A stretch of DNA of 64,000 nucleotides from an uncultured Clostridia bacterium (GCA_947626975.1 CANQUF010000001.1:22980-86979); one strand, 5' to 3'. Positions 832 through 37,923 are shown, numbered from the stretch's first letter. The notes: generated by a model from the sequence alone, not told the origin. Numbers and translations: made by a program.

Positions 832-1722
832 TTAATATATAATATTTACTTTTGATTTTCTTAAATAACTAGAAAATTCATCTATACTCATACTTCTATT
901 AGCATAAATTCTTGGAATTTCATATAAATTATGCTTATTAGAATAATATACTCCACCACTCATAGCAAGACCGTATTTATAATTATTTTTTGCAACTTCT
1001 ATTATATTTTTATTATACTTACCTATAGGATAACATATTGTATCTACTTTTATATCATATGTACTTTCCAAATATTTTTTAGAGTCTACTAGCTCTTTTT
1101 GCATCTCATTTAATGAAAGAGATGTAAGTTCACGATGAGTTAAAGTATGAGTTTGAACTGATACAAGGCCACTATCTATCATTTCTTTTATTTGATCACT
1201 AGTTAAATAATTAGGTCCATTAACATAGTTGCATATTATATAGATACTTGCTTTTTGATTATATTTTTTTAGCAATGGAAAAGCATTATTATAAAAATAT
1301 ACAAAGCAGTCATCAAATGTAAGTGCTACTGGTTTAGTATAATTTGATAAGTCCTCAATCTCATTTACAAATACAGTTTGATATCCATTATCAACAATAT
1401 ACTTTAATTGTTCTTCTAAAGTAGATGGTCTTAAAAAATTTTCAACATCTAAATTCTCACCATAATCATCTAAAATAAAATGATACATAAAAATTGGAAG
1501 TGATACGTCTAATTCTTTATATATTTTTTCTTCACCATTTGCAATACTAATATTTTCAATGTTTATATAATTTTTATCTTCTTTAAAAAAATTAAAAGTT
1601 TTTATTGCTATTAAATCTTTATTTTTTACAAAATAAAGAAAAGCTGGAGATAATAATAAAATTAAAATAATAAGAATAAACTTTATTCTATTTTTTACTT
1701 TAATTGTCATATATACCTCCAT
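832..1722 (-). CDS. polysaccharide deacetylase (NodB/CE4 family), N-terminal signal-anchor
   Basis: NodB motifs: LTFDDC, HTLTHRELTSLS and PIFMYHF. There is a single N-terminal TM after a basic stretch, so the catalytic domain is probably extracytoplasmic. It is paralogous to the 9050..9949 product. Confidence 0.75.
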   Translation of the reverse strand: MEVYMTIKVKNRIKFILIILILLLSPAFLYFVKNKDLIAIKTFNFFKEDKNYINIENISIANGEEKIYKELDVSLPIFMYHFILDDYGENLDVENFLRPSTLEEQLKYIVDNGYQTVFVNEIEDLSNYTKPVALTFDDCFVYFYNNAFPLLKKYNQKASIYIICNYVNGPNYLTSDQIKEMIDSGLVSVQTHTLTHRELTSLSLNEMQKELVDSKKYLESTYDIKVDTICYPIGKYNKNIIEVAKNNYKYGLAMSGGVYYSNKHNLYEIPRIYANRSMSIDEFSSYLRKSKVNIIY

Positions 1723-1783
1723 ATTTATTTTTATAAAATATTAATATTTAAATGATTTTAAATTTTATGTATTAATAATACAA

Positions 1784-3130
1784 TTATTTGTCTTTATCAA
1801 ATATTTTGGCACCTGTTCTCTTCTTAGAACTTAATTCATCTGACTTATTAACTAAATCTTCTTTATATTCTTTTTTATTATTTAATCTTTTTCTAATCTT
1901 AAGATCTTCATCTTTAGTTTTACTATTTACACTATTTTTATTATTTTTTTTGTATAAATATAAGATAAATATAAATTCAATAAGTATTATTGCTAACATT
2001 GCTAATATACCATACTTTGATCTTACTAAATTATATACTTTTCTTAAGAAACTATCATTATCATTTTCACTCTTTAAATAATTAATTTCTTCGTCTTCTA
2101 CTAAACTAGGATCTTTTACAACTTTTATTACGTATTCTTTCGTAGTAGTGCCATCTTCAGATGTTACTTTTACTGTAATAGTATTTTCTCCATCTTGTAA
2201 TCTGTCATTACCAATTATTTCAATATTTACATTTTCATTTTCTCCGAATGCAAGAATTTTTAAATTTTCTATACTTGCACCTACAGTACCGCAATCATAT
2301 TCAAATATTTCCTTTGAAAACTCAGGTGACAATGTAGCATTTTCTACAATCAAATTAAGCAAATATGAATTAGATTTTACCGGGTCAGCTGTTTTTGTAG
2401 CAACAATTGTATAAACTTTTTTTGTTCCATCTTGTGCAGTTACAGTTATAGTAATATTATTATCTCCTGCTTTTAAATCTTTATTACCAGTAATAGTAAC
2501 TTTTGAAGTTGATGCTTCTGGAACTGCTGTAATATTCAATTCACTTATATTTTCACCAATAGTTATAGTATAATTAGTTTTATTTTTATTAAAATTAGGC
2601 GTTAATCCTTCTTGATCTACTTGTAATTTTGATAAATATGCATTATTGTTTTTTACAGATGTATTTGATACTGTATTATTAGTAGTATTAATATTATTAT
2701 TATTAGTATTAGTATTATTTACTTGAGGTGCACTAACAGTTATAGTTTTTGATGCTGTTATAACACCAGTGCCATTAACTTTAGTATCAGTTTTAAAATC
2801 TACTGCTTCTAACATTTTAAATTCAAAGGTGTATGTTCCAACTGAAGTTGGTGTATAAGAATATGTCTTTGAAGCAATACCATTAATAGTGCTGCTATCA
2901 AAATTCCATAATCCTTCTGATTTTATTACTTGACCATTGCAAGTTAATGTTGCTGAGGTATATGCACCAACAGAAGTACCTAAATTAACATTTATATTAA
3001 CACTCTGTCCCAAAGTAATATTATTTGCACTCATACTAGCTGCTCTAATATCTTTAGATATAAAGAAATAAAATAAAATAATAAATACAAATATTATATA
3101 TCTAAACTTACTTTTCATATTTACCTCCAT
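1784..3130 (-). CDS. surface protein with two cadherin-like beta-sandwich domains, type-I membrane anchored
   Basis: Signal peptide, an Ig-like N-terminal domain and an N/T-rich linker. Two repeats of the LSxLxVxxGxLxPxFxxxxxxYxxxV...VTAxDGTxKxYTIxV pattern (cadherin-like beta-sandwich). C-terminal TM (ILAMLAIILIEFIFILYLY) plus a ~60-aa Lys-rich cytoplasmic tail. Confidence 0.6.
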   Translation of the reverse strand: MEVNMKSKFRYIIFVFIILFYFFISKDIRAASMSANNITLGQSVNINVNLGTSVGAYTSATLTCNGQVIKSEGLWNFDSSTINGIASKTYSYTPTSVGTYTFEFKMLEAVDFKTDTKVNGTGVITASKTITVSAPQVNNTNTNNNNINTTNNTVSNTSVKNNNAYLSKLQVDQEGLTPNFNKNKTNYTITIGENISELNITAVPEASTSKVTITGNKDLKAGDNNITITVTAQDGTKKVYTIVATKTADPVKSNSYLLNLIVENATLSPEFSKEIFEYDCGTVGASIENLKILAFGENENVNIEIIGNDRLQDGENTITVKVTSEDGTTTKEYVIKVVKDPSLVEDEEINYLKSENDNDSFLRKVYNLVRSKYGILAMLAIILIEFIFILYLYKKNNKNSVNSKTKDEDLKIRKRLNNKKEYKEDLVNKSDELSSKKRTGAKIFDKDK

Positions 3131-5649
3131 TACTCTTGTACAATTTTATTTATATTCAATATATGTTTTTGTAATTTTTGTAAATCAATCGTTGTTGGTT
3201 CACCACCATCTTTTTTTATATCAGATGATAGTTTTTGTATATTTGATAAAGCTTTTATTTTTAATATAGCTTTCTGCATTATTTGTAAATCAATTGTATT
3301 TATTAACCCTTCTCCATTTATATCACCATAAATAACAACTGAATAACTTTGAATCACATCTTTACTCTCTTTATCAGTAAGTTCAATAGTTGTTCCTGTT
3401 CCAACTAAATCATTATCTAAAATAATCTTGTTATTAATATCTTTTATTACAACTTCATATTTTTCTTTATTATATGTTAGTTTATTTAACAATTCAGAAA
3501 TTTTAGTATTTGGCTCTATTTTACTTATAATATTTTCTTTATCATTAACATTTATTTCTTTGTCAAATGTTAAGAAATCAGCTTCAGATATATCAATAAC
3601 TTTTACTTTAGCAGTTACACTTTTTTCACCATCTTTTGTCTTAAATACAACATCTGTACTACCAGAATTTACACCCTTTATTTTATTATTTTCAATTTTT
3701 ACAATATTTTCATTTTTACTTGTTACACTATACTCTTTATTTGTAGCATCATCTGGTGATATAGTAGGTACTATTGTCAAATACTTTCCTTTAATCATAG
3801 TATAATTTTCTTTAGGTATTGTTATATTTTCAACTTTTGATATAACTGTAACATTACAAGTTGAAGTAAGTCCAGTATCAATAGCTTTAACTGTTATTGT
3901 TGCATTACCTGATTTATTTGCAGTAATCTTTCCATTTTCTACTGATACAATACTTGAATCACTACTAGACCATTCTACATTTTTATTTGTGGCATCCTCT
4001 GGCTCAATTTTATACGTTAATTCTTTATTTTCGCCTTTATTTAAAGTAAGTTCAGTATCATCTAAAGTTATTTTTGTAACTTTTTTTACTACATTAACTT
4101 TACATGTTGCAGTCATTTCATTATCTAGAGATTTTACAGTAATTGTAGCTTCACCTTTTGATTTTGCTGTAAGTTTTCCATTTTCAACACTTACAATATC
4201 ACCATTACTACTAGACCATTCTACATCTTTGTTTGTTGCATTATTTGGTAATATTGTACAAGTAAGATCATATGTATCACCTAAATTCATTTCTAAATTT
4301 GTAGTATTTAAAGATATTCCTGTTACTTTTACATTTGTGTCAACTTCTTTTGTATAGTCTCTAAATACATATCCTTCTATACCGTTATCAAGTCTTACTT
4401 TATCCCATTGTGTATTTAAACTTTTAGCAATTCTTGTCATTTGGTCACCTTCATCAAGTTTTGCTACTATAGAGTATGTTGTTCCTGGACCTGATCTAAT
4501 ATACAATTTTGATGGAGCTACATCATAAGCGGCTATTCTTGTATTATCAGATACATACTCCTCTGAATTATTACCTGGATATGGTGAAAGAGAATCAGGC
4601 ATATTATTAAATACAGGAATATGAAACTCAAATACATTATTTAACATACCCATTTTTTCATATGCTGTATATGTACTATATGATTCATTTGTTGGTGCAA
4701 GAATATTTGTCATATATTGATACGCATAAAGTGCTATTGCATTTCCATATGGATTGTTTACGTCAAATTTTTGAAAGTATGTTGTATCTTGTCCCCACTT
4801 TATCCATTGATTTTTTAAGATATCTGTTCCACCTTTAATAGCACTATCAGGATCAGTCCAATTTTTATTTTTTGCATATTTAAGACCATTAGTAATAGAA
4901 TCTGGTGGAGTTGCACCAATATTAAAATAGTTGTATGGAACTACTCCATCAATAACAGTTGAACCGTTTATTGAACGATTAGAAGTAATATTTCCACCAG
5001 TTTCTTGTTTTATTCTTGATGCAATATATACACCACTAACGTTATATTGTTTTGCAGCATCTAGAATAATACTAGAATAAGTCTTATTCATATTAATCAT
5101 TGATCCTTGTTTTTGATATTCTGATCTATTATACATTGATGTACCATATAATACTTTTTCAATAGAATCTATAGTATCCATAGATTTACTATAGCTTAAA
5201 GTTTGAAATTGAAATACTTCTTTTTCATTTATATGGTTTCTTGGATCTAACATATATTTTACAGCTGGTATTGAAGCAATAACCCAACCACCATCATCAA
5301 TCTGATAATCTTGTCCATCTTTTTTCCATGCAGGATCATAACTTGATGGGACAGCACTAATTCCAGTATTTACTTCATAGCTTTCATGACTTACTGCCTC
5401 ATTCCAATCAAGACCTGTATATACTGCTTTAAATACCCAATTTGGATGAGCTTGCTTTAAGGCATTTATGTATGGTACGTAACTTGCTGGAAAATCATCT
5501 CTCATTTGTGATATAGGAAGTCCAGTCGTAATTTTTGCTTGTACTTGATTTATATTTGTAAATAATGGCATTATACTACATGTGATAATAGAAATTATTA
5601 CAAATAATATTGATATTTTCTTTATTTTTCCTTTTTTCTCATACATCAC
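3130..5649 (-). CDS. secreted multidomain glycan/peptidoglycan hydrolase (GH73-like catalytic region, SH3b, 3-4 Big_2 Ig-like domains, C-terminal dockerin-like module)
   Basis: Signal peptide. The N-terminal ~420 aa are paralogous to the N-terminus of the 1254-aa protein, with a QETGG...YNYFNIGA...GQDTTYFQKFDV pattern resembling glucosaminidase (GH73) motifs. The SH3b-like segment is SKLYIRSGPGTTYSIVAKL...GYVF. Big_2-like repeats follow (VTGISLN..., KITLDDTELTL..., ITIPKENYTMI...). The last ~65 aa look like a dockerin. Confidence 0.55.
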   Translation of the reverse strand: MMYEKKGKIKKISILFVIISIITCSIMPLFTNINQVQAKITTGLPISQMRDDFPASYVPYINALKQAHPNWVFKAVYTGLDWNEAVSHESYEVNTGISAVPSSYDPAWKKDGQDYQIDDGGWVIASIPAVKYMLDPRNHINEKEVFQFQTLSYSKSMDTIDSIEKVLYGTSMYNRSEYQKQGSMINMNKTYSSIILDAAKQYNVSGVYIASRIKQETGGNITSNRSINGSTVIDGVVPYNYFNIGATPPDSITNGLKYAKNKNWTDPDSAIKGGTDILKNQWIKWGQDTTYFQKFDVNNPYGNAIALYAYQYMTNILAPTNESYSTYTAYEKMGMLNNVFEFHIPVFNNMPDSLSPYPGNNSEEYVSDNTRIAAYDVAPSKLYIRSGPGTTYSIVAKLDEGDQMTRIAKSLNTQWDKVRLDNGIEGYVFRDYTKEVDTNVKVTGISLNTTNLEMNLGDTYDLTCTILPNNATNKDVEWSSSNGDIVSVENGKLTAKSKGEATITVKSLDNEMTATCKVNVVKKVTKITLDDTELTLNKGENKELTYKIEPEDATNKNVEWSSSDSSIVSVENGKITANKSGNATITVKAIDTGLTSTCNVTVISKVENITIPKENYTMIKGKYLTIVPTISPDDATNKEYSVTSKNENIVKIENNKIKGVNSGSTDVVFKTKDGEKSVTAKVKVIDISEADFLTFDKEINVNDKENIISKIEPNTKISELLNKLTYNKEKYEVVIKDINNKIILDNDLVGTGTTIELTDKESKDVIQSYSVVIYGDINGEGLINTIDLQIMQKAILKIKALSNIQKLSSDIKKDGGEPTTIDLQKLQKHILNINKIVQE
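3133..3340 (-). other. dockerin-like C-terminal module (two Ca-loop + helix segments)
   Basis: The first segment, GDINGEGLINTIDLQIMQKAIL, fits the type-I dockerin pattern (D-x-N-x-[DE]-G-x-I-N-x-x-D then LxxLxKxIL). The second, DIKKDGGEPTTIDLQKLQKHIL, has a conserved helix but a degenerate loop. Confidence 0.45.
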
Positions 5650-6413
5650 TTATTATCTCCTTTATTTAAAATTTGTATATAAGTTTTAACCTCTATAAAA
5701 TTATATCATAAAAGAAAAAAATGCAAAAGTATTTTGTAGAAATTTGTATACAGAATATATTATGTAAAAATGATATAGAGAAAAATTTTCAAGATAATTC
5801 TTGAATACTTTTTCCTTGTTAATTTCAATATGAAAATAGTTCTTCTACAATTTATTTAATATGTTAGTATCTTCGATATATTTTTTCCTTTGCCTTTTGT
5901 TGCTTTTAATAATGCATATTTATCTGTGCTATATGTTTTAACACATTATTTATGCTATAACTTCTGGAAGTAGTTGCATCAGTATGTATAAGGTACTATT
6001 TAGTATTTTCTTTTCTATATTTTCAATTAATAGTACAGATTTGTTTTTAATTCTATAATGAAATTTTCTATATTTCCATTAGATATATTTAGCTTGTTTT
6101 TTGATATCGATTTTATTAAATATGATAGTCTGTCAATTGCAACTAACCCTTCTATATTTAGAAAAGAGAATAAAGCTTTTATATCAGATCCATATTGTAC
6201 ATCTGTCTTAAATTCTTTTGGTATATTATATTTTCCATTTTCATCTTGATAAAATCTATATTCTTTAGCACTACATCTATTTTTATATCCAATACATATT
6301 TAGATATATATTTATCTGATACTTACCTACATTAATTACTTCATGAGTAACTTCTTATTATTTATTTGGTTTAATATCAGATGATGGAGGTAAGAGACGA
6401 ATTATCACTATTA

Positions 6414-6665
6414 TTACCTAATTGTTTTTTTAAGTCTATCTACTTCATTATATAATTTATTATTCTTGTCTTTTAAATCTTTTATTTTCTTTTTTAAGGC
6501 ATGTACTTCTTCTTTATGTGTTTTCTTTATTTGTTTAATTTCTTTTAAATATTTTTGAGAAGTTTGTCCTTTTACAATTTTTATTTCTTGTGATAAATTA
6601 TCACATTTTTTCATAACTTCTTCTAATTGTTTATACATATCATTCATCTGACCAATTGAAGACAT
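6414..6665 (-). CDS. small coiled-coil protein (83 aa), unknown function
   Basis: Heptad-rich Lys/Glu sequence with a plausible RBS (AAGGACGGTG) 7 nt upstream. It stands alone in a 1.4-kb AT-rich spacer. Confidence 0.3.
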   Translation of the reverse strand: MSSIGQMNDMYKQLEEVMKKCDNLSQEIKIVKGQTSQKYLKEIKQIKKTHKEEVHALKKKIKDLKDKNNKLYNEVDRLKKTIR

Positions 6666-7091
6666 AGTTTATCACCGTCCTTTAAATATATTATACAATA
6701 TATTTAGAGTAATACAAATTAAATTTATGTTACAAAATTGAGATAACAAACGAAAAAATATGAAAATGAGATAGAGTTATCCACATTTCCATATTTATAT
6801 TAAAAAAATTACTATTTTAACTTTTATTATATTAATATTTTCTTTGTATAATTATCCACAAATACATAATTTTGTTACTTAAATTTTATTTTTCTAGTCT
6901 AAATAGTAACAGATAACCGGTTTAATATATCAAATCTTATTGCATTGATACTTTTCTTGTTCTAATCCTTTAGTGACTCATTTAGAATAGTCGGGCTATA
7001 AAGGAATAAATTTTTTAGTATTATATTTTTTTCTGCACTATGTTATAATTTATTAATTTAACTATACATTATCGCGCTTTTTTGTATTATG

Positions 7092-8108
7092 TCAGTCACT
7101 ATTTAAAATATTCTTTTGATAATTCCAACTATCTCTACAAATATCCTCCAAAGTTTTTTCTGTTTTAAATCCTAATTCTTCTCGTGCTTTTGTTGGATCT
7201 GCATAATAGCAAGCTAAATCTCCAGGTCTTCTTTCTACAATTTTATATGGTATTTTTATATTATTTACTTTCTCAAAAGTTTTCACAATATCAAGTACAC
7301 TATATCCTGTTCCTGTTCCAAGATTATATATATATAATCCATTATCAGATGTATCTAATTTATTTAAAGCAAGCAAATGTCCTTTTGCTAAATCTACAAC
7401 ATGTATATAATCTCTAACTCCCGTTCCATCAGGTGTGTCATAATCATCGCCAAATACTGATAATTCACTTAAACTACCACTTGCAACTTTTTGAATATAT
7501 GGCATCAAGTTGTTTGGAATTCCTTGAGGTTCTTCACCTATAATTCCAGAACTATGTGCTCCAACAGGATTAAAATATCTTAAACTTACTATATTCCAAG
7601 TATTATCAGATTTATACAAATCATCAAGAATTATTTCTATCATTGACTTTGTAGTACCATAAGGACTTGTACCTCTTTTTATCTCCATACTTTCAACATA
7701 TTTTGTTGTACCTGGATTTCCGTATATAGTTGCTGATGAACTAAAAATGAATTTTTTAACATTATATTTTTTCATAACATCTAGTAATGTAAGTGCACCT
7801 GTAACATTATTTATATAATATTCTAAAGGTTTTTGTACAGACTCTCCTACTGCTTTATACCCTGCAAAATTTATTACTGCATCAATATCATTATTTTTAA
7901 AAATTTCTTCTAAAGTTTCTCTATTAGTATAATCTCCTTCATAAAATTTAAAGTCCTTATTTGTAATCTTTTTTATATTATCTAATGTTTTGGGTTTACT
8001 ATTAGAAAAGTTGTCAATAATAATTATTTCCCTTCCTGCATTTAATAGTTCTACACATGTATGAGAGCCAATATAACCTGCTCCTCCAGTTACTAGTATT
8101 TTCTTCAT
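7092..8108 (-). CDS. galE: UDP-glucose 4-epimerase
   Basis: Rossmann motif VTGGAGYIGSH, catalytic YGTTK (YxxxK), and a length (338 aa) and overall pattern typical of GalE. Confidence 0.85.
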   Translation of the reverse strand: MKKILVTGGAGYIGSHTCVELLNAGREIIIIDNFSNSKPKTLDNIKKITNKDFKFYEGDYTNRETLEEIFKNNDIDAVINFAGYKAVGESVQKPLEYYINNVTGALTLLDVMKKYNVKKFIFSSSATIYGNPGTTKYVESMEIKRGTSPYGTTKSMIEIILDDLYKSDNTWNIVSLRYFNPVGAHSSGIIGEEPQGIPNNLMPYIQKVASGSLSELSVFGDDYDTPDGTGVRDYIHVVDLAKGHLLALNKLDTSDNGLYIYNLGTGTGYSVLDIVKTFEKVNNIKIPYKIVERRPGDLACYYADPTKAREELGFKTEKTLEDICRDSWNYQKNILNSD

Positions 8109-8138
8109 ATAATTTCCTCCAAAAATTAAAACAAAAAA

Positions 8139-9059
8139 CTAATGTTTTAGTATTTTCTTTATTAATATTTCGAATATAAGTTCAAATTTCCTTATATATT
8201 TTAGAATTTTAAAAATTAATATTTGAAATAAATTAGCCTGGTTATACTTTTTTTGAAAGTATATCTTACTGTCAAATAATATATCTTGTTTTTTAAATAC
8301 ACTCATTATTTTACCTATAGTTTTGCTTTCATAATGAGTAAATGATAATTTATTTAAAGAGTATATATCGTAATTAAATTTCTTTGCATTTACACTTATA
8401 ATATCCTCTTCATAGAATAAAAAAGTATTATCATCAAAATATCCTATATTTTTAAACAGTTCGTGATTTGCAATAAAAAAAGATCCAGCTATTGCATCGA
8501 CTTTTAATATTTCTTTTTTAAAATCATCTTTAGAATATTCTCCTTTTTTAAAAAATGGATATAGTAAAAACTGTGTTATACGAGTAGAATTTGCAATATC
8601 AGTTATAACATTTCTATGCTTCCAAGCACTTCTTCTTGCAGGGCCATTTATGTAATTCATTCTTGGAGATGCTATTACACAATTTTCATTTTTATCTAAA
8701 AATTGAATTGTATTTATTATATCTTGCTCTTTTATATATACATCAGGATTTGATATTATAACGTATTTAAACGTATCAACTCCATAATGTTTATCAATAT
8801 ATTTTAAGCCATAATTATTACCATATGCATATCCACCATTCTTATTACTAACTATAACCTCAACTTTACTAGAAGTAAGCTTTTGTAGACTTTTAACTTC
8901 ATCTTTATTAGTGGAGTTATTGTCTACTATTATAACCTTATCTAATATTTTATAGTCTTTTATATTTTTTATAATTTCCTCTGTATTTTCTTTATCGTTA
9001 TAATTTAATATTATCATTGCTATAGACATAACAGTTACCTTTCTTAACTTTATTCCCAT
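8139..9059 (-). CDS. glycosyltransferase family 2
   Basis: GT-A N-terminus (IILNYNDKENT...IIVDNNSTN) and an acidic DxD region. It overlaps the upstream deacetylase gene by 10 nt. Confidence 0.7.
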   Translation of the reverse strand: MGIKLRKVTVMSIAMIILNYNDKENTEEIIKNIKDYKILDKVIIVDNNSTNKDEVKSLQKLTSSKVEVIVSNKNGGYAYGNNYGLKYIDKHYGVDTFKYVIISNPDVYIKEQDIINTIQFLDKNENCVIASPRMNYINGPARRSAWKHRNVITDIANSTRITQFLLYPFFKKGEYSKDDFKKEILKVDAIAGSFFIANHELFKNIGYFDDNTFLFYEEDIISVNAKKFNYDIYSLNKLSFTHYESKTIGKIMSVFKKQDILFDSKIYFQKKYNQANLFQILIFKILKYIRKFELIFEILIKKILKH

Positions 9060-9949
9060 TCTACATTAACTTTAGATTTTGTTACATAATCTTTAAATGT
9101 ATCCATTGACATAGATCTATTTACGTATATTCTAGGTATAGCATACATATTCTTATGTTTTGATGTATAATATGTACCACCAGTCATAGCGAGTCCATTT
9201 TTATATCCTATTTCTTTAGATAAATCTAATACTACATTATTAAATGATCCATAAGGATAACATATTGTTGTAGAATCTATACCTAAGTTCTCTTTTAAAT
9301 AAATTTTAGATTTATTTAATTCATTATATATACTATCTTTATTTAAATCTGCAAGTCTTGGATGCGTTACTGTATGAGATTGAATGTCGACAAGTCCACT
9401 ATCTTTCATTTCTTTTAACTCATCTAATTTAATATATCCAGGAGTACCAATTAAAGATGTAATAACATAATACGAAGCTTTCATATTATATTCTTTTAAT
9501 AACGGAAAAGCATTAATATAAAAGTCTTCCAAACCATCATCAAAAGTAAGCCAAACTGGTTTTGTAAAATTTTGTAAGTTTTCAATATCATCTTTATATA
9601 TTGTTTCATATCCATTATCTTTTAAATATTGAAGTTGCTTTTTTAACGTTTCTGGACGTACCATATTTTCTGGAAATTCATAATCACCTGTATCATCTCT
9701 TACAAAATGATACATAAATATTGGTACTGCTGCATCTAAACTTTTTACTTTCTTTAATTCGGCATTTGCTATATTATCTTGTAAAATAAAATTTACTGTA
9801 TTTTCTTTTTTATTTTCATTAGCTAAAGTTTTATTATTTAAACTTATTTTACTAAAATATATAGTTATTGCAACTATTATAGCTAATATTATACAAATGA
9901 ATATAACAAAAAACATTTTTTTATTTATTTTAGTAATTATATATACCAC
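9050..9949 (-). CDS. polysaccharide deacetylase (NodB/CE4), N-terminal signal-anchor
   Basis: WLTFDDGLEDFY, HTVTHPRL and PIFMYHF motifs, with a single N-terminal TM. It is paralogous to 832..1722. Confidence 0.75.
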   Translation of the reverse strand: MVYIITKINKKMFFVIFICIILAIIVAITIYFSKISLNNKTLANENKKENTVNFILQDNIANAELKKVKSLDAAVPIFMYHFVRDDTGDYEFPENMVRPETLKKQLQYLKDNGYETIYKDDIENLQNFTKPVWLTFDDGLEDFYINAFPLLKEYNMKASYYVITSLIGTPGYIKLDELKEMKDSGLVDIQSHTVTHPRLADLNKDSIYNELNKSKIYLKENLGIDSTTICYPYGSFNNVVLDLSKEIGYKNGLAMTGGTYYTSKHKNMYAIPRIYVNRSMSMDTFKDYVTKSKVNVEWE

Positions 9950-9975
9950 CTCTTATTAATTTAATTATTAAAGTT

Positions 9976-10365
9976 CTAATTACTACCTTTCAAAGTTTTT
10001 TTTGGTTTGATATTAATTACAATTATCCCAATTATAACAAGAGATACACCTATTATTCCATTTATAGTAATTTTTTCTTTAAAAAGTAAATAACCTGACA
10101 ATAAAGTTAAAACTTGTGTTATTCCAGAACTAATTGGCATTATATAACTTAAATCAAATTTTACTATAAGATTAGTAAATAAAAGAAAACTTAATATATA
10201 ACTAATAAATCCAAGTAAACTTATTAAACTCATAGAAAAAGAAAATGATCCTTGTCCAAATAAAAAAGTTCCTGTATTTCCTCCTATTTTCATTAATACT
10301 AATCCTAAAACTGTAAGTATTAAATATGATATAACAAATATAGTTTTTTTCATTTTTCCCCCCAT
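9976..10365 (-). CDS. small 4-TM EamA/SMR-like transporter subunit (ArnE/ArnF-like)
   Basis: About 125 aa, four predicted TM helices, and a tandem paralog immediately upstream. The pair architecture resembles heterodimeric undecaprenyl-phosphate-sugar flippases. Confidence 0.5.
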   Translation of the reverse strand: MGGKMKKTIFVISYLILTVLGLVLMKIGGNTGTFLFGQGSFSFSMSLISLLGFISYILSFLLFTNLIVKFDLSYIMPISSGITQVLTLLSGYLLFKEKITINGIIGVSLVIIGIIVINIKPKKTLKGSN

Positions 10366-10366
10366 A

Positions 10367-10732
10367 TTATACTATTTTTAAATTCATTATAACAATACCA
10401 ACTATTATAATACTTGCTCCTATTATTGAAGTTTTACTAATTTTTTCCTTAAATAACAAATTAGCAGATATCAAAGTTAATATTTGTACTATACCAGTAA
10501 CTATTGGCATTATATAACTCAAATCAAACATTACAACAAGTCTTGTAAATAACAAAAAACTACATAAATAACTTAAGAAGCCTAATGCACTAATAGGACT
10601 CATTGATAAACTTATATCTTTTTTATTTAGTTTGATTTTACCGGGATTTCCACCTTTTTTCATTAAAATAAGTCCTAAAAGTGTTAATATAAGGTAAACT
10701 ATTATCATTAAATATTTCATTTTTTCCCCCAA
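10367..10732 (-). CDS. small 4-TM EamA/SMR-like transporter subunit (ArnE/ArnF-like), paralog
   Basis: Clear paralog of the 9976..10365 product, sharing FDLSYIMPI and LLFKEKI. The two genes are separated by 1 nt. Confidence 0.5.
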   Translation of the reverse strand: MGEKMKYLMIIVYLILTLLGLILMKKGGNPGKIKLNKKDISLSMSPISALGFLSYLCSFLLFTRLVVMFDLSYIMPIVTGIVQILTLISANLLFKEKISKTSIIGASIIIVGIVIMNLKIV

Positions 10733-10735
10733 AAT

Positions 10736-11518
10736 CTATTTCTTTTTATTTAATTTATACACTAAATATATGATTATAATTATTAGAATTCCAACAATTC
10801 CAATAAACACTCTAATATCAATAGTTTTTCTACTTTTATCAGTATTCATATTTGAATCCTCTTGTGATGTTTCAACTACATCACTAATTGCTTTATCTAT
10901 TGTATCTTTTTTTAAATTTAGTGTATATTCTTTTGCGGTACTTCCATCTTCAGAATTTACTTTTATTTTTATAACATTATTACCATCTTTTAAATTTTCA
11001 TTTCCAGATATTTCTACAGTAGCTCCTTCTTGTCTTGGAGCAGCGAAAATTGAAACATTATTTATCTTATTTGGTACACTACCTAAATCATAGTTTAAGG
11101 TTTCAGGTACAAATGGTGGCACTAACTCTAAGTTTTCAACAATTAAAGTTTGCAAATATGAATCTGATTTATCTTTATCTGATGCTTTAGTTACAGTTAT
11201 AGTATAAACATTTTCTTTACCATTTTTATCAGTTACTTCAATTAATACTGTATTATCACCAGATTTTAAATTATCATTTCCTGATACTTTCACTGTAGAA
11301 TCAGTAGAACTTGCTACTGCATTTACATCAATAGAATTTATAGTATCTTTTACAAACAAAGAATAACTTGTTTGCGATGGAGTGAAATTTGGGGATAAAC
11401 CTTCTTGGTTTACCTCCAATTTCATTAATTCAGTATTTGTAGCTGCCATACATACACAAATGTTAGTAAGAAAAAAAACACTAAAAAAGAACACAATTTT
11501 CTTAAAATATTTTGACAT
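10736..11518 (-). CDS. surface protein with two cadherin-like beta-sandwich domains, C-terminal TM anchor
   Basis: Signal peptide, two cadherin-like beta-sandwich repeats (LMKLEVNQEGLSPNF...YTITVTK and LQTLIVENLELVPPF...YTLNLKK), and a C-terminal TM ending in KKK. It is a shorter paralog of the 1784..3130 product. Confidence 0.6.
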   Translation of the reverse strand: MSKYFKKIVFFFSVFFLTNICVCMAATNTELMKLEVNQEGLSPNFTPSQTSYSLFVKDTINSIDVNAVASSTDSTVKVSGNDNLKSGDNTVLIEVTDKNGKENVYTITVTKASDKDKSDSYLQTLIVENLELVPPFVPETLNYDLGSVPNKINNVSIFAAPRQEGATVEISGNENLKDGNNVIKIKVNSEDGSTAKEYTLNLKKDTIDKAISDVVETSQEDSNMNTDKSRKTIDIRVFIGIVGILIIIIIYLVYKLNKKK

Positions 11519-11531
11519 ATTTTCCTCCTAT

Positions 11532-14500
11532 CTATTTTACTAATATATATATCATAGATTTAATATTATTATTTTCATCTTTTATAAATAATGTTGCATC
11601 TCCTGAACCTTTTGGAGTTATTATTCCATTCTCATCAACTGTAAACACTGAAGTATTATTTGTTTCATAATGTACATTAATATATTTACTATCAGCTAAA
11701 TTTATGAAGTCTGATACTTTATATGTATTTTCTAAACTTAAAGTTCTATGATCAGTATATTCTACATTCAATTTTAGTTGAGCATATACAAGATTTGAAC
11801 TATCATTAGAAACTACAGTTATAATTGTTTCACCTAAGCTTTTTGCGACTATATTTCCATCTGAATTTACATCAGCAATATTGCTATCTGCTACTTTAAA
11901 AGTTACATCCTTATATTTTGCATTATCAGGCAAAATTTTATAATTTATTTTACATGAATCACCAGATTTTAAGGTAAGTTCTTTTTTATCTAATACAATT
12001 TCTGTTACTTTTACATAATCTATAACTTTTATATAAACCATTGCTAAATTATTGCCATTAATATCTTGCACAAATACAGTGGCATCTCCTTTTCCAGTTG
12101 GTGTTAATTTCCCATCTTGTGATATCTTAGCTACAGATTCATTATTTATTTTTAATATCGCATCAGAATATTTCTTATTATTAACATCTAATACATTCCA
12201 AATTGACTTAGGAGTTACCATATCTGTTTCAATAGAAGCAGTATATTGCAAGTTAACATTACATGTTACATCATTAAAAGTTTTATCCTCTGAAGAAATA
12301 ATTATTTTAGAATTTCCTAAAAATTTAGCATATATATTTCCATCATCATCAATTGTAAATAGATCTTCATTTGCACTTTTATATTTTAATTTTTTATACT
12401 TAGCATTATCAGGAACTACAGTAGCATCTAATTTGTCACTTTCACCTACTTTTACATTAAATTCATCTTTATTTAATTCTATTTTTTCTACTTTAATATA
12501 TTCCTTTACATTTACATATATCATACTCTTAGTATTACCTGATGAATCAATTATAAATAGCGTACAATCTCCTAATGAACTATTGACTGTTACTAATTTA
12601 TTTTTATTATCAATAGATAAAAGAGTATTATTATTTGTACTAAGAGTACAATTTCCATATTTTTCTGTATCAAAGAAATATGAAAAAGATAATTTATCTT
12701 CAAAATATACTGTTTTACTGTCAGTATATCCAACTTTAATATAACATAATTCAATAATATTTCCATTTTTATCTTCTACAAATACACTTGCATCTCCTAA
12801 AAATTTTCCTGTTACATTTCCTGAACTATCTACATTAATTACATCATTATTGTTAGTATAATATTTTATGCCAATTTTATCAATATTTATTTTCTCTCCT
12901 ACTTTTATTGATTTTGAATCCGTATAGTGTACTCCCACATAGTATATTCCAATTAAATTACCATTTTTATCTTCTACAAATACACTTGCATCTCCTAAAA
13001 ATTTTCCTGTTACATTTCCTGAATTATCTACATTAATTACACTATTATTATTTGTATAATATCTTGTACCAATTTTACCAATATTTATTGTCTCTCCTAC
13101 CTTTATTGATTTTGAATTTGTATAGTGTACTCCCACATAGTATAGCCCAATTAAATTACCATTTCCATCTTCTACAAATACACTTGCATCTCCTAAAAAT
13201 TTTCCTGTTATATTTCCTGAACTATCTATATTAATTACACTATTATTGTTAGTATAATATTTTATTCCAGTTTTACCAATATTTATTGTCTCTCCTACTT
13301 TTATTGATTTTGAATCTGTATAGTGTACTCCCACATAGTATAGCCCAATTAAATTACCATTTCCATCTTCTACAAATACACTTGCATCTCCTAAAAATTT
13401 CCCTGTTATATTTCCTAAATTATCTAAATTAATTACACTATTATTGTTGGTATAATATTTTTTACCATTACCATCAATATGTATCTTTTCTCCTATTTTT
13501 AATGAAAATTGATCTGTGTATTTTACTGCAACATAAAACATAGCTAATCTTCTTCCATCTAATGAATCTATAAATACAGTAGCGTCTCCTAAGAATTTTC
13601 CCTTTACATTTCCTTTTGAATCCACATATAAAACTTCATTATTATTAGTATATATCTTACAATTTCCATATTTTTCTAAATCTATATTAATAGTTTCGCC
13701 AACTTTAACAGAAAAAGAATCTGTATATCCAACTGCAACATAGCAAGTATCTTGTATTGATAAATCATCATCACTCATTGCAAATACAGTTGCATCTCCT
13801 ATATTTCTTCCTGTTACAATACCATTTTTATCTACTGTTACAACATCAGAGTTGTTTGTAGTATATATAACATCTTTAAATCTTGCATTATTTGGAGATA
13901 TTGTCGCATTAAGTTGTTCACTTTGTCCAGATTTTATTTTTATTTTTTCTTTATTTAATGTCAGTCCTGTTACTCTTGTATATCCAGTATATTCCTTAAC
14001 ATAGCTAGAGAAAACATAACCTTCAGTTCCATCACTTAGTTTTACCTTATCCCATTGAATATTTATACCTTTTTTTATTCTAGTCATTATTGTTCTATTC
14101 TCTTGGCCTTCAAAATCTTCTATAATTTTTGTAACTACTGCAGAATTAGAATTTGGTTCAGCTCTGATTATAAAGGTATCTTTTACTCCAAAATCAGATG
14201 TATCATCAAGATATACTTTTGTATGATCATCTTCAAATTTTGCTTCTTCACCAACTTGAACCGGTGTAGGAGTCATATTATTAAATACAGGTATATGAAA
14301 TACAAATGATGAATCTAACATGTTACATGCCTTATATGAAGAATATATTCGACTTGATTCACTAGACGGAGCTAATATATTAGTCATATATTGCATCCAA
14401 TACAAAGATTGACCTCCTGTAATATCATTTACATCCCACTTTTCAAAATATACTGTATCTTGTCCCCATTTTACATAATCGTTATATATCTTTTTAGCAG

Positions 14501-15296
14501 CTCCTTCAATTGATGATGATGGATGTGTCCAACCTTCATCACGAGCTCGTAAAAGTGCATTAACAACTATAGATCTACCACCTGCTGTATTAGCTCCAAT
14601 ATTGAAAAAGTTATATAAGCCTTCATATCCAGGATATGACCCATTTATGCAATTATTATTTATTATGTCACCACTATTTTCTTGCCTTATTCTTGATGCT
14701 AAATGTACAGGGCTAACATTATATTTTTTACCATTTTCAGTTATTATATCAGAATATGACTTTTTTCCCGTTTCTCCATCAAGAAATAGCCAATTACCAT
14801 TATTTTTATATCTAACTCCGTAATATGAGTCACCCATAGGAGTTCCGTATAAAACTTTTTTTACCACATCTGATGTATCTACATTATTATTACTTGTTAC
14901 TGCAAATTGGAATATTTTTTCCTCATTTAAAAAATTTCTTGGATCTAAGCAATAACCAACTGCAGATTCTGAAGCATTAACCCATCCAGGTTCTATATTT
15001 TCTTCACTCTTTTTCCATTCTGATGAATAACTAGATGGTACCAAACTTCTTCTGTCAACAGTTTCATTATCTACTGTATTTTGCCAATCTAAATCAGTAT
15101 ATACAGCAACAAACTTCCAGTTGGGATGAATACTATGCAAATTTTGCAAATAAGTTTGATAGCTTTCAGGAAAAGCATTAATTCCTTCTACATATTGAGA
15201 TTTTGCATAAATAACATTTTTACCTAAAAATATTATAGCGATGAATATAAATAGTTTTATTATATTAATTTTACATTTTTTTATTTTATTTATCAT
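11532..15296 (-). CDS. secreted multidomain glycan/peptidoglycan hydrolase (GH73-like region, SH3b, many Big_2-like repeats)
   Basis: The N-terminal ~430 aa are paralogous to the 839-aa protein. The SH3b-like segment is GYVFSSY. After that come about eight ~65-aa Big_2-like repeats, the central four nearly identical, and further Big_2 domains to the C-terminus. Confidence 0.55.
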   Translation of the reverse strand: MINKIKKCKINIIKLFIFIAIIFLGKNVIYAKSQYVEGINAFPESYQTYLQNLHSIHPNWKFVAVYTDLDWQNTVDNETVDRRSLVPSSYSSEWKKSEENIEPGWVNASESAVGYCLDPRNFLNEEKIFQFAVTSNNNVDTSDVVKKVLYGTPMGDSYYGVRYKNNGNWLFLDGETGKKSYSDIITENGKKYNVSPVHLASRIRQENSGDIINNNCINGSYPGYEGLYNFFNIGANTAGGRSIVVNALLRARDEGWTHPSSSIEGAAKKIYNDYVKWGQDTVYFEKWDVNDITGGQSLYWMQYMTNILAPSSESSRIYSSYKACNMLDSSFVFHIPVFNNMTPTPVQVGEEAKFEDDHTKVYLDDTSDFGVKDTFIIRAEPNSNSAVVTKIIEDFEGQENRTIMTRIKKGINIQWDKVKLSDGTEGYVFSSYVKEYTGYTRVTGLTLNKEKIKIKSGQSEQLNATISPNNARFKDVIYTTNNSDVVTVDKNGIVTGRNIGDATVFAMSDDDLSIQDTCYVAVGYTDSFSVKVGETINIDLEKYGNCKIYTNNNEVLYVDSKGNVKGKFLGDATVFIDSLDGRRLAMFYVAVKYTDQFSLKIGEKIHIDGNGKKYYTNNNSVINLDNLGNITGKFLGDASVFVEDGNGNLIGLYYVGVHYTDSKSIKVGETINIGKTGIKYYTNNNSVINIDSSGNITGKFLGDASVFVEDGNGNLIGLYYVGVHYTNSKSIKVGETINIGKIGTRYYTNNNSVINVDNSGNVTGKFLGDASVFVEDKNGNLIGIYYVGVHYTDSKSIKVGEKINIDKIGIKYYTNNNDVINVDSSGNVTGKFLGDASVFVEDKNGNIIELCYIKVGYTDSKTVYFEDKLSFSYFFDTEKYGNCTLSTNNNTLLSIDNKNKLVTVNSSLGDCTLFIIDSSGNTKSMIYVNVKEYIKVEKIELNKDEFNVKVGESDKLDATVVPDNAKYKKLKYKSANEDLFTIDDDGNIYAKFLGNSKIIISSEDKTFNDVTCNVNLQYTASIETDMVTPKSIWNVLDVNNKKYSDAILKINNESVAKISQDGKLTPTGKGDATVFVQDINGNNLAMVYIKVIDYVKVTEIVLDKKELTLKSGDSCKINYKILPDNAKYKDVTFKVADSNIADVNSDGNIVAKSLGETIITVVSNDSSNLVYAQLKLNVEYTDHRTLSLENTYKVSDFINLADSKYINVHYETNNTSVFTVDENGIITPKGSGDATLFIKDENNNIKSMIYILVK
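12600..13750 (-). repeat. tandem ~195-bp intragenic repeats (encode ~65-aa Big_2-like units), core copies near-identical
   Basis: The DNA unit '...atcttctacaaatacacttgcatctcctaaaaattttcctgtta[ct]atttcctga...' recurs at about 12.78, 12.97, 13.17 and 13.36 kb with only a few mismatches. More diverged copies flank the core. Confidence 0.7.
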
Positions 15297-15408
15297 ATAT
15301 TACACTCCTATTTACATATAATTTACTAACATAAATTTTATATACCTAAAATAATTAATATAGTAAATAAAAAATACATAACTAATGGTAATATTTTTTA
15401 TATCCATA

Positions 15409-17577
15409 CTAATACGAAACCTTAAAAATCAATAAACCATATTCATCATAAAGTTTTTCAAATTTTATATTATCATTATTATATTTTTCTAAATTTTTGC
15501 TAGATAAAACATATTTAACATTAATATCGTCTAATTTGTCAGGATTAATATTTATCTTTATAGAATCAGGATATAATAATTCTAAATTTGTATCAATATC
15601 ATCAATATTGACACTTACATGTGCATATCTATTATAGATTTTTCTTATTTCTTCTTTTTGACTATCCTCACCTAATAAAGTTTTATATAATTCATAATTA
15701 GGATAATAATTTGTAGAATTTATTACTCTTGCACCATTTGCAACAACGTAATTTGGAACTGTAAAATTTAAATTATCAACTAGCCATAAGGCGTCTTTAT
15801 TTTCATTTACAATTTTTTGTATTTCTAAAGATACAGGTTTGTTATATATTACATTTATTCCTTTTATGATAGGATTTACTATAGCACCAGATAATATTGC
15901 AACAGACGATAGTATTACCATAAAATATTTCTTATATTTTGGTTTATTTAAATTAAACATAAGATAAAACAAAATAAATACTATTGTGCCTGATATAAAA
16001 CCTGAAACTGGTCCTAAATAATTAGATGGTCCATACTTAACAGCAAAAATTAAACATATAGTTGCAAAAACTCCAGAGAGTATAAAGCTAACTTTTTCTT
16101 TTAATAATTTGGTATCATCTTTAAAATTATTAATTAAATATATAATTAACAATATTTGTATATATCCTAAAGCTATTGCTGCCCTATGTGAAGGTATCAT
16201 ATATAATAATGTTATCTTTGCAAATATTTTATTAGTAGGGATAAAACACCATATAGAAAGTAAGATACTAACTAGTAATAACGGTATTAAAAAACTTAAT
16301 ATCTTTTTAAAATCTTTGCTTTTTCTTTTTCTATATAAATAGAGTAAAGCAATAATAATCGGCATAGGATATAAAGATAGCATATTTGAATTTTCACAAG
16401 GGTTTATCATGTCCTTAAGCGGTACAAAAATCGAATATACATATGAAAACATGTTATCTTGAGAATTTCCACCAATTTCAAATCTCTCTCCTGGATAGTC
16501 AGCATTAAGCGTTGCTGTAATAGCCTCATTTGAGATGATAAAAAATCTAGCAACGATTAAAACAACTAAAATGATTGTTATAATTATAGATAATACATCA
16601 ATTTTATTAATATGAAAATCTTTTCTATTTTTTAAAATAATCCATATTAGAATTGCAAGATAAACATATGCAAATGAAATCATCCATGCTGGATATAGTA
16701 TAAATATATAACAAATAGCACAAAATCCCACACCTAATATGTATAGACTTCTAAAATACCATTTTTTTTCAAGCATAAATTTATCTATTAAAACTAGCGC
16801 CAATTGTCCAAATATTAGTATATCTACTATAAAATTAGAATACCACCATTGCACAGCTGGAGAAAAAGTTATTACAAGCATTCCGAATAATGATACAAGC
16901 TTGTTTTTCTTAGTAAGTAACATACAAAATTCAAATGATATTAACATTAATGCTACTAATCTACCATACCACCAAAAAGATAATCCTACTTCATTACCAA
17001 ATAGAAGATACCCGATATTAAAAGGTTTCCCTATAATTAGAATATCTTTAACAGGAGCATTTATTACTGTAAACATGTCTGTTTTTGTTCCTCTAATATT
17101 CATATTAAAATATGGATAATTTTCATTTTCTTGTAAATTTTGAGAAAATATTAAAGGAGAATTTACGGCCCATTCATCTGAACGTATTGTCCTTGCTTTT
17201 CCTAAAATAGGAGTATACGTACTATCATTAGCCTCACTTTGTACAAAAAAATTATATGATGTAATTGATGAGCCTGAATATTTCATTATCATAGCAAAAA
17301 AAAGGAATAATAAAGCTAAAATAAATCTTTTTTTATATATCCACTGATACATATCATTAAGCCTAAAAATTAAATGTAATCCGGTAAATAATATAACTCC
17401 TGCAATTATAATAATTCTGTCTATACTAAAAGCTCCACTTTTTTTATAAATCACAAAAAACTCCATAAGAAAAGATAGTAATACGGCAACTAAAAACAAT
17501 ATAATTATTTTGATAAGTTTAAAATTATCTTTATTAAAAAAATTCAAAACTTTATTTCTTATCTTCTTTTTTGTCAT
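15409..17577 (-). CDS. polytopic membrane protein, candidate GT-C glycosyltransferase / oligosaccharyltransferase (YfhO- or WsaB-like)
   Basis: At least 12 predicted TM helices over ~520 aa, followed by a ~200-aa soluble C-terminal domain. The genomic context is GT2 plus a small membrane protein. No motif-level assignment was possible. Confidence 0.4.
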   Translation of the reverse strand: MTKKKIRNKVLNFFNKDNFKLIKIIILFLVAVLLSFLMEFFVIYKKSGAFSIDRIIIIAGVILFTGLHLIFRLNDMYQWIYKKRFILALLFLFFAMIMKYSGSSITSYNFFVQSEANDSTYTPILGKARTIRSDEWAVNSPLIFSQNLQENENYPYFNMNIRGTKTDMFTVINAPVKDILIIGKPFNIGYLLFGNEVGLSFWWYGRLVALMLISFEFCMLLTKKNKLVSLFGMLVITFSPAVQWWYSNFIVDILIFGQLALVLIDKFMLEKKWYFRSLYILGVGFCAICYIFILYPAWMISFAYVYLAILIWIILKNRKDFHINKIDVLSIIITIILVVLIVARFFIISNEAITATLNADYPGERFEIGGNSQDNMFSYVYSIFVPLKDMINPCENSNMLSLYPMPIIIALLYLYRKRKSKDFKKILSFLIPLLLVSILLSIWCFIPTNKIFAKITLLYMIPSHRAAIALGYIQILLIIYLINNFKDDTKLLKEKVSFILSGVFATICLIFAVKYGPSNYLGPVSGFISGTIVFILFYLMFNLNKPKYKKYFMVILSSVAILSGAIVNPIIKGINVIYNKPVSLEIQKIVNENKDALWLVDNLNFTVPNYVVANGARVINSTNYYPNYELYKTLLGEDSQKEEIRKIYNRYAHVSVNIDDIDTNLELLYPDSIKININPDKLDDINVKYVLSSKNLEKYNNDNIKFEKLYDEYGLLIFKVSY

Positions 17578-17929
17578 TTATAGTCTCCTCCAAAGCTAAA
17601 ATTTTCGCCTTCAAAATAGAAATTTCTTGTATTAATAATATAGTTCTATTTGCTTGCTTAGTTAATATCATAGTAAGTGAAAAAATCAAACCAAATGCAA
17701 TAAAAATAGTTAAACAAAATATCATATTTGAGGTTTGCTCAAATCCTAATAAATTAGATATTAATTCTATAAAATTAGGTATTAATATAGCCACCATTAA
17801 CAATATTCCTGTTATAATCCAAAAAATAGCAATAGAAGATTGCATTTTCCTTTTTTTTACTGAACTTATAATTAGATATAAATATATCACTGTTATAATT
17901 ATTAAAGCTACTCTAAGTGTAATAGACAT
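17552..17929 (-). CDS. small membrane protein, DUF2304-like (GT2-associated)
   Basis: Three TM helices plus a C-terminal amphipathic/coiled segment (LIQEISILKAKILALEE). The pattern (R-KGK-x-LxxSxxxIWI...LLGxE-P-N-LF) matches the DUF2304 family, which usually neighbours a Dpm1-like GT2. Confidence 0.45.
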   Translation of the reverse strand: MSITLRVALIIITVIYLYLIISSVKKRKMQSSIAIFWIITGILLMVAILIPNFIELISNLLGFEQTSNMIFCLTIFIAFGLIFSLTMILTKQANRTILLIQEISILKAKILALEETINDKKEDKK

Positions 17930-17930
17930 A

Positions 17931-18671: not shown

Positions 18672-18702
18672 AATTCTATAAATCCTTTTACATATAATTC
18701 AA

Positions 18703-27350: not shown

Positions 27351-27377
27351 AAAAAACCTCTTTTCTTTTTAATTTCT

Positions 27378-37731: not shown

Positions 37732-37923
37732 AAATTTCTCCTTTAAATTGTTTATATTTATACCATATAATAACATAATTTTGCTTAAAAATCAATATAT
37801 TACTTATTTTAAACAACTATAAATATTTATTAATATATAAAATTTTAATATATATAATATTTTATTATCATATTTTTTACAAAAAAAATAATGGCACACT
37901 TTACTTAAGTATACCATTAACTT

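Follow-up and report, generated by a model that had tools for sequence, protein, structure and literature searches.

Sugars added to wall polymers outside the cell determine a bacterium's phage receptors and antigenicity and how well it withstands cationic proteins of the host. In the Gram-positive three-component decoration systems, exemplified by GacI/J/K/L of Streptococcus pyogenes, CsbB/GtcA/YfhO and CsdAB/CflA, the flippase step has to our knowledge been ascribed only to GtrA or Wzx types, none of which has been directly demonstrated. A review of these systems likewise lists only Wzx- and GtrA-type flippases (PMC8035078). A 64,000-nucleotide stretch of DNA from an uncultured Clostridia bacterium (GCA_947626975.1 CANQUF010000001.1:22980-86979), here called the window, carries a rhamnose-type cell-wall polysaccharide locus in which this slot appears to be filled differently. 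Two adjacent genes on the minus strand, smA (10367-10732, 121 amino acids, aa) and smB (9976-10365, 129 aa), encode small proteins with four transmembrane (TM) segments, and the pair is best read as the putative undecaprenyl-phosphate (Und-P)-sugar flippase of a three-component wall-glycan decoration system.

The window resembles the Gac, Csb and Csd systems in combining a TM-less family 2 glycosyltransferase (GT2) and a DUF2304 protein, for formation of the Und-P-sugar, with a GT-C enzyme for transfer onto ABC-exported rhamnan, and in carrying these genes within the rhamnan locus. It departs from them in that the flippase slot is held by a homo- or heterodimer with a small multidrug resistance (SMR) fold rather than by Wzx (GacK) or GtrA (GtcA/CflA), and in that the GT-C protein comes from the uncharacterised DUF7657/DUF7654 family. 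Scans of the window proteins with Pfam and other models found neither a GtrA- or Wzx-family flippase nor any other flippase candidate, and an SMR-like protein sits in that place. The second comparison is with ArnE/ArnF, on which the original prediction for positions 8139-10732 was modelled: a GT2, a family 4 carbohydrate esterase (CE4) and two tandem small four-TM proteins were likened to ArnC, ArnD and ArnE/ArnF, respectively. All four open reading frames (ORFs) lie there on the minus strand, and the proposal is partly supported: a heterodimer that resembles a flippase and is connected with the GT-C protein stands, and the ArnC and ArnD assignments fail. The pair shares with ArnE/ArnF the four-TM SMR fold, the paired-gene heterodimer, the absence of a central Glu and the company of an ArnC-like GT2 and an ArnT-like GT-C; unlike ArnE/ArnF, it is closer in sequence to EmrE, with a negligible relationship to the Arn proteins, and its host is Gram-positive. 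No equivalents of ArnA, ArnB or ArnD were found in the window scans. Citrobacter youngae offers the closest published parallel with its ORF14, a four-TM protein similar to EmrE and ArnE that was proposed, by inference, as the flippase of a comparable system and is classed by its authors in the MATE family.

The fold of the pair is that of the SMR transporters. smA and smB are paralogs with 61% identity, and the AlphaFold2 model of smA (pLDDT 79) consists of four helices; its top 12 Foldseek matches in the PDB all come from EmrE and Gdx-Clo, the best with TMq 0.68 and TMt 0.76. A profile of the small-protein family matched EmrE with 94.7% probability over TM2-TM4, and EmrE was the sole relative of the small protein in a PDB sequence search; by hhalign the family profile gave probabilities of 6.8% for ArnE and 0.5% for ArnF. 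Named families are approached rather than entered. The NCBIfam models were not passed for ArnF (17.7 bits, cut-off 99) or ArnE (18.8 bits, cut-off 92), nor were those of the SMR exporters, of which the best, EbrB, scored 31 bits where 160 are required. The Pfam Multi_Drug_Res threshold was missed by smB (23.0 versus 23.7 bits), with no match at all for smA, and the EamA threshold was narrowly passed, by smA only; smB has weak EamA/SMR/TMEM234 matches. Thus the ArnE/ArnF analogy stands for fold, opposite topology and lack of the Glu, and falls for sequence membership.

The residues that distinguish exporters from lipid flippases point the same way. SMRs that flip lipids have no central Glu and retain the Tyr switch (Burata et al., PMC9574504). 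In the small family, 73 of 87 sequences, smA included, carry Thr where EmrE has Glu14, the Tyr switch equivalent to EmrE Tyr60 is kept in 85 of the 87, and an invariant Pro76 aligns with EmrE Trp63, so that the Glu14 and Trp63 hallmark of SMR exporters is missing from the pair and its relatives. The equivalents of EmrE Tyr40, Ser43 and Tyr60 are conserved. The pair is thus like the EmrE/Qac and Gdx exporters in fold, length, antiparallel-dimer logic and these three residues, and unlike them in its Thr and Pro substitutions, its sub-threshold scores and its glycan-biosynthesis context. The SMR fold, two adjacent genes for subunits of opposite topology and the absence of a central Glu are all present.

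Paired SMR genes encode subunits of opposite Lys/Arg bias (PMC9574504), and here the bias is -5 for smA and +5 for smB. The signs are opposite in 14 of 14 pair loci, the window included (first gene -4 to -7, second gene +2 to +6), and 59 singleton homologs average +1.1 (standard deviation 1.4). Because the biases are opposite within pairs and near zero in singletons, the pair is presumed to be a fixed antiparallel heterodimer with smA as the N-out and smB as the N-in subunit, which bears out the earlier label 'heterodimer-type'; the singletons would be dual-topology homodimers. In a neighbour-joining tree all A subunits form one clade and all B subunits another, and a single ancient duplication is therefore indicated. 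The family thus offers a natural series from dual-topology homodimer to fixed heterodimer, and a tractable system for asking how a lipid-linked sugar may cross the membrane without proton coupling.

Gene linkage connects the small family to Und-P-sugar synthesis. A profile search of 1.84 billion representatives returned 577 small-family clusters at 50% identity, and a scan of a genome collection returned 69 loci (68 distinct), each in a genome bin of uncultured Clostridia, Bacilli or Bacillota, and mostly from animal or human samples. ORFs were called in each locus and then classified against the window and locus references, so that the counts refer to the DNA available per locus. An adjacent GT2 and DUF2304 couple is present in 46 of the 68 loci (8/11 with a pair, 38/57 with a singleton), and a GT-C-like gene (DUF2142, DUF7657 or a relative) in at least 39 (9/11 and 30/57). 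The small gene lies within seven genes of DUF2304 in 47 of the 47 loci that have it, directly adjacent in 14, and a GtrB-sized GT2 of about 312 aa is its immediate neighbour in 10 loci. The CE4 gene, by comparison, occurs in 8 of 68 loci (8/11 and 0/57) and the GT2-306 type, the GT2 of the original prediction, in 7 (4/11 and 3/57); a GalE-type epimerase accompanies 7 of 11 pair loci and 10 of 57 singleton loci. Across the 68 loci the small gene tracks the GT2 and DUF2304 couple, not GT2-306 or CE4.

When 56 unclassified hydrophobic ORFs of the related loci were scanned in bulk with Pfam, neither Wzx nor MurJ turned up and GtrA did so just 4 times; GtrII and PMT_2 were also found, and proteins with DUF6056, DUF6020 and DUF6077 are suspected to be further GT-C enzymes. 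It is because the family travels with the GT2 and DUF2304 couple and a GT-C gene, where Wzx was not found and GtrA is rare, that the pair is best read as a flippase. Natural fusions of the small domain to GT2, GT4 and DUF2304 domains also speak for this reading. A widespread SMR-fold family, so far without a name, thus appears to fill the flippase slot. Several unrelated metagenome-assembled genomes have the pair in company with CE4, an epimerase and a GT2 of the GT2-306 type, and since the gene order differs among them, the arrangement is not attributable to chance. Two loci (L012 and L014) have an uninterrupted run of GT-C, GT2, DUF2304, smA, smB, CE4 or GT2-306, and epimerase.

The partners required of a three-component system, an Und-P-sugar synthase (GT2 with DUF2304) and a GT-C, are both encoded in the window. 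GT2-246 (17931-18671, minus strand) is a PpgS/GacI/AglJ/DPMS/ArnC-like protein with no TM segments; its NCBIfam matches include PpgS (E = 1.4e-24, at 87 bits far under the model cut-off of 370) and ArnC (E = 3.8e-11), BLASTP aligns it to the catalytic domain of Escherichia coli ArnC over 244 aa (E = 2e-12), and its PDB relatives are DPMS, ArnC and GtrB. The neighbouring gene (17552-17929, minus strand; Pfam DUF2304, E = 1.6e-21) encodes a small membrane protein of the GacJ/Rv3632 family. GacJ and Rv3632 stimulate GacI and PpgS, respectively (bioRxiv 10.1101/180810), and by analogy the DUF2304 protein may be the activator and anchor partner of GT2-246. A classical enzyme of GtrB/ArnC type with two C-terminal TM helices, GT2-330 (36784-37776, minus strand), matches PgfS (E = 1.6e-93), ArnC (E = 1.8e-55 and 3e-47) and the GtrB structure 5ekp (E = 9.7e-75) and is a possible second supplier of the pair's substrate. 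Its gene stands at the far end of the locus, adjoining that of a PBP2-like penicillin-binding protein, with no GT-C gene beside it. Both GT2-246 and GT2-330 have the similarity to the ArnC/GtrB/DPMS catalytic domain, and the true ArnC-type enzymes are thus encoded outside the segment in which the synthase had been sought.

The 722-aa polytopic membrane protein encoded at 15409-17577 (minus strand) matches Pfam DUF7657/DUF7654 and has a GT-C fold. Its AlphaFold2 model (pLDDT 83, pTM 0.86) gave 13 top Foldseek matches in the PDB that were all GT-C enzymes, with ArnT the best (E = 1.5e-4), followed by AftA, AftD, STT3, ALG6, PglB and EmbA at modest TM-scores of 0.25-0.40, and an invariant R132-x-D134-E135-W136 lies in its first external loop. 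From the model, this protein is presumed to transfer the flipped sugar onto the wall polymer. The suggestion that the small pair feeds it remains the best reading, ArnT being its best structural match, with the ArnC and ArnD portions of that suggestion removed. In relatives, a polytopic GT-C-like domain, recognised by length and hydrophobicity and without a family match, is fused to a PpgS-like GT2 in proteins of about 690-776 aa (L075 27-2105); L025, L050 and L070 have natural fusions as well.

The deacetylase of the segment, CE4-299 (9050-9949, minus strand, 299 aa; Pfam Polysacc_deac_1, E = 2.3e-31), finds its nearest characterised relative in PplD. PplD is a membrane-anchored extracellular enzyme that de-N-acetylates N-acetylglucosamine (GlcNAc) of the linkage unit between streptococcal rhamnopolysaccharide and peptidoglycan, and its homologs are described in the PplD paper as mainly streptococcal. 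The best PDB match of CE4-299 is PplD (6DQ3; E = 1.3e-31, 35% identity; pairwise E = 5e-38), and its residues include H81 (in MYH), D137/D138 (in TFDD), H192/H196, ICYPYG and R273, with an MT3 that has no Arg. A second PplD-like paralog (832-1722, minus strand, 296 aa) is 51% identical to CE4-299, and both retain every PplD-specific feature, namely the MYH His, the TFDD and HxxxH ligands, the Arg-less MT3 and the late compensating Arg. Ten of 10 CE4 homologs begin with three to five Lys/Arg followed by a single strongly hydrophobic helix; the N-terminus is therefore placed inside and the catalytic domain outside, so that CE4-299 has a type II membrane anchor, a linker and an extracytoplasmic catalytic domain, confirming the signal-anchor that had been noted for it. 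CE4-299 is thus like PplD in its TM helix, linker and extracellular CE4 domain, in the MYH His, Asp-His-His triad, Arg-less MT3 and late Arg, and in its association with a rhamnopolysaccharide; it differs in its Clostridium host, in the position of its gene inside the glycan locus, in having two paralogs and in being co-inherited with a flippase-like heterodimer. On these features CE4-299 is predicted to be an extracellular de-N-acetylase of PplD type (PplD/PgaB/IcaB type), and PplD-type wall de-N-acetylases would thereby extend beyond streptococci. A poly-N-acetylglucosamine (Ica/Pga)-type synthase-deacetylase was considered, as PgaB and IcaB are the best NCBIfam matches, and was rejected in the absence of a processive multi-TM GT2.

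Together, these results make it fairly likely that a module for decorating a rhamnose-type wall polysaccharide with side chains has its downstream half in this region. GT2-246 with the DUF2304 protein, and possibly GT2-330, would load a sugar on Und-P at the cytoplasmic face. The smA/smB heterodimer of SMR fold, devoid of a proton-coupling Glu, would then let the Und-P-sugar pass into the outer leaflet through facilitated diffusion, taking the slot of GtrA or Wzx (GacK) in the known Gram-positive systems, and the DUF7657/DUF7654 GT-C would attach the sugar to the exported rhamnan. CE4-299 would act separately, outside the cell and in the manner of PplD, on GlcNAc of the polymer, most likely of the linkage unit, to leave a free amine. 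GT2-306 and GalE would provide an ordinary cytoplasmic hexosyl, probably galactosyl, transfer step.

Several observations weigh against this scheme. Flipping by the small family is argued from fold, residues and linkage, and the match of the small proteins to ArnE/ArnF is negligible. The GT2 and DUF2304 couple is missing from 22 of 68 loci, many of them on truncated contigs, and 4 loci carry GtrA alongside the small gene. Fusions of a glycosyltransferase to the four-TM domain fix its topology as N-in, which is awkward for an antiparallel dimer and makes an anchor or scaffold role possible. For the deacetylase, identity to PplD is 35%, so that CE4-299 need not be its ortholog, the homologs in the PplD paper are mainly streptococcal, and two paralogs exist in the window. 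Moreover, CE4 is exclusive to the heterodimer clade (8/11 versus 0/57 loci), which is unexplained if CE4 and the pair act independently. The Fisher p of 2e-8 for this link cannot be taken at face value because the heterodimer clade derives from a single duplication and is one evolutionary event.

The linkage of CE4 to the heterodimer leaves room for a glucosamine (GlcN) or galactosamine (GalN) side-chain pathway. According to this unlikely alternative, GT2-246 and DUF2304 make Und-P-N-acetylhexosamine (HexNAc), the heterodimer flips it, CE4 deacetylates the lipid-linked or freshly transferred sugar outside the cell, and the GT-C installs the GlcN or GalN side chain. The restriction of CE4 to loci of the heterodimer clade speaks for it, as do the persistence of the CE4 linkage despite shuffled gene order and together with a GalE-type epimerase (7/11 versus 10/57), the short tether that keeps CE4 near the membrane, and PpgS as the top NCBIfam match of GT2-246. 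The genes also recall the mycobacterial and corynebacterial modification of arabinogalactan with GalN (GalE1/Rv3634c, PpgS, Rv3632, Rv3779), with its epimerase, PpgS-like GT2, DUF2304 protein and GT-C; unlike that pathway, the window encodes a candidate flippase and deacetylase beside the other genes, and its GalE has a Tyr gatekeeper. For the GalN pathway itself, flippase and deacetylase are stated to be still unidentified (PMC9671496). Set against the alternative are the single origin of the heterodimer clade, through which the CE4 association counts as one event and the Fisher p overstates it, and the substrate of PplD, the nearest characterised CE4 relative, which is the linkage unit of the polymer and not a lipid-linked sugar. 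The PpgS match of 87 bits also lies far under its cut-off of 370.

The epimerase bears on the same alternative in both directions. In GalE a Tyr at the gatekeeper position (E. coli Y299) restricts the enzyme to UDP-Glc/Gal, and a Cys makes it tolerant of UDP-HexNAc. The window enzyme, a UDP-hexose 4-epimerase (7092-8108, minus strand; TIGR01179, E = 5.9e-132), has Tyr, as does that of one other locus (L009), and the 17 of 17 other locus-linked epimerases (L004-L070) have Cys. Most linked epimerases would thus accept a HexNAc donor, whereas that of the window would not, and GalE was accordingly dropped as evidence for a GalNAc donor there. The difference suggests that otherwise similar modules have different donor-sugar ranges. 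That the pair and the tethered CE4 cooperate with the PpgS-like GT2, DUF2304 and the GT-C, so that Und-P-HexNAc is flipped, deacetylated outside and transferred as a GlcN/GalN side chain onto the rhamnan, is rather doubtful; if true, the flippase and the deacetylase missing from the GalN pathway would gain their first candidate protein classes, and the passage of a lipid flippase from homodimer to heterodimer would be linked with a switch in cargo.

An improbable alternative is that the small proteins are no transporters at all and instead serve as membrane anchors or scaffolds, bringing cytoplasmic glycosyltransferases to a lipid-linked acceptor much as DUF2304 does for GacI. The small domain is naturally fused to GT2 (P0139; L075 2463-3620), to GT4 (P0191) and to DUF2304 (P0220, with a partial four-TM domain), and the small gene often adjoins GT2 or GT4 genes. 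The SMR transporter fold and the retained pocket residues equivalent to EmrE Y40, S43 and Y60 argue to the contrary, as does the strict pattern of dual or opposite topology, a hallmark of antiparallel SMR transporters; nor would these systems otherwise have any flippase.

The Arn-like scheme, with GT2-306 in the part of ArnC making a polyprenyl-phosphate amino sugar, CE4 in that of ArnD, the pair flipping the deacetylated product and the GT-C transferring it, is very improbable. Of the three enzyme assignments that it makes, two are contradicted, despite the adjacency and probable co-transcription of the GT2, CE4 and SMR-like genes and the upstream GT-C whose best PDB match is ArnT. GT2-306 (8139-9059, minus strand, 306 aa; Pfam Glycos_transf_2, E = 1.6e-12) has none of the features of a polyprenyl-phosphate GT2. 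It resembles ArnC at E = 0.003 over residues 13-147 only, the N-terminal nucleotide-binding part; it has no TM segment, no PDB relative at E <= 0.01 and no match to the GtrB, DPMS or ArnC models of NCBIfam, and shows only weak similarity to a rhamnosyltransferase, GlfT1 and TuaG. Judged by its sequence, then, GT2-306 is not a polyprenyl-phosphate-sugar synthase. Its gene is adjacent or next but one to that of a GalE-type epimerase in 7 of 8 loci carrying it, and accompanies the small gene in 7 of 68; GT2-306 looks like a Leloir-type GT2, either soluble or peripheral, that works as an ordinary transferase in the cytoplasm and has a donor supply of its own. CE4-299, for its part, has no detectable similarity to ArnD (BLASTP E = 3.8, and no ArnD model among its NCBIfam matches), and an outward catalytic domain precludes action before flipping.

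It is hardly credible that the pair exports drugs, guanidinium or polyamines as an ordinary SMR efflux pump and is in the locus by chance. The best named models are EbrA/B and EmrE (E = 1e-4 to 1e-7) and the profile matches EmrE, but every score lies far under the family cut-offs, Glu14 is Thr and Trp63 is Pro, and 68 of 68 distinct loci with the small gene are wall-glycan loci. 

The four genes lie in DNA of about 24% GC in which almost every gene is on the minus strand. CE4-299 and GT2-306 overlap by 10 nucleotides and smA and smB are spaced by 1, and the four are probably co-transcribed as a tightly packed operon; promoter and terminator scans of 5600-19000 found sites no more frequent than in shuffled sequence, the DNA being AT-rich. 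Translation of smA probably begins at the ATG at 10720, which gives 117 aa, as does the start used in the database. The locus carries rmlDACB and a Wzm/Wzt ABC exporter, in which Wzt has a Wzt_C domain, together with a methyltransferase beside MetK and several large GT2 and GT4 proteins. Toward the pair the order is GT2-246, DUF2304, the 722-aa DUF7657/DUF7654 protein, an autolysin and a cadherin-like protein, then the pair, CE4-299, GT2-306 and GalE. The two genes between GT-C and pair encode a GH73-like autolysin of 1254 aa with Big_2 repeats (11532-15296, minus strand) and a cadherin-like anchored protein (10736-11518, minus strand), and this interruption is seen in the window genome only. 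The remaining window holds spore-former housekeeping genes (mreBCD, a PBP2-like penicillin-binding protein, the gerA operon, a BclA-like protein, relA, recJ and thrS).

Several minor observations concern these surroundings. MetK and an S-adenosylmethionine-dependent methyltransferase adjoin the Wzt with its Wzt_C carbohydrate-binding domain (26211-29997), and because they are neighbours, methyl-capped, terminator-recognising ABC export of the kind found for some Gram-negative O-antigens is suggested for a Gram-positive rhamnan locus. The set of GH73-like Big_2 autolysin, cadherin-like protein and PplD-like CE4 is duplicated (832-5649 and 9050-15296), and only the 9050-15296 copy has the small pair and GT2-306. 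Within the 1254-aa autolysin-like gene, a 198-bp tandem repeat (12752-13614; 3.6 copies, 92% identical) encodes modules of about 66 aa and could give length variation of a surface protein. An autolysin-like protein of 839 aa (3130-5649) has a type I dockerin domain at its end, which is not usual among peptidoglycan hydrolases. From GalE to the next autolysin gene there is a gene-poor gap of 1.4 kb (5650-7091), whose sole ORF encodes 83 aa (6414-6665), Lys/Glu-rich and possibly coiled-coil. recJ (52523-54221) appears as two overlapping ORFs in different frames, with DHH/DHHA1 at 52953-54221 and RecJ_OB at 52523-52984; the gene could be truly split, or the cause could be a frameshift or an error in the assembly. 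Finally, the collagen-repeat BclA-like exosporium protein is encoded on the opposite strand (47908-48813, plus strand), in the only local bump in GC (0.31).

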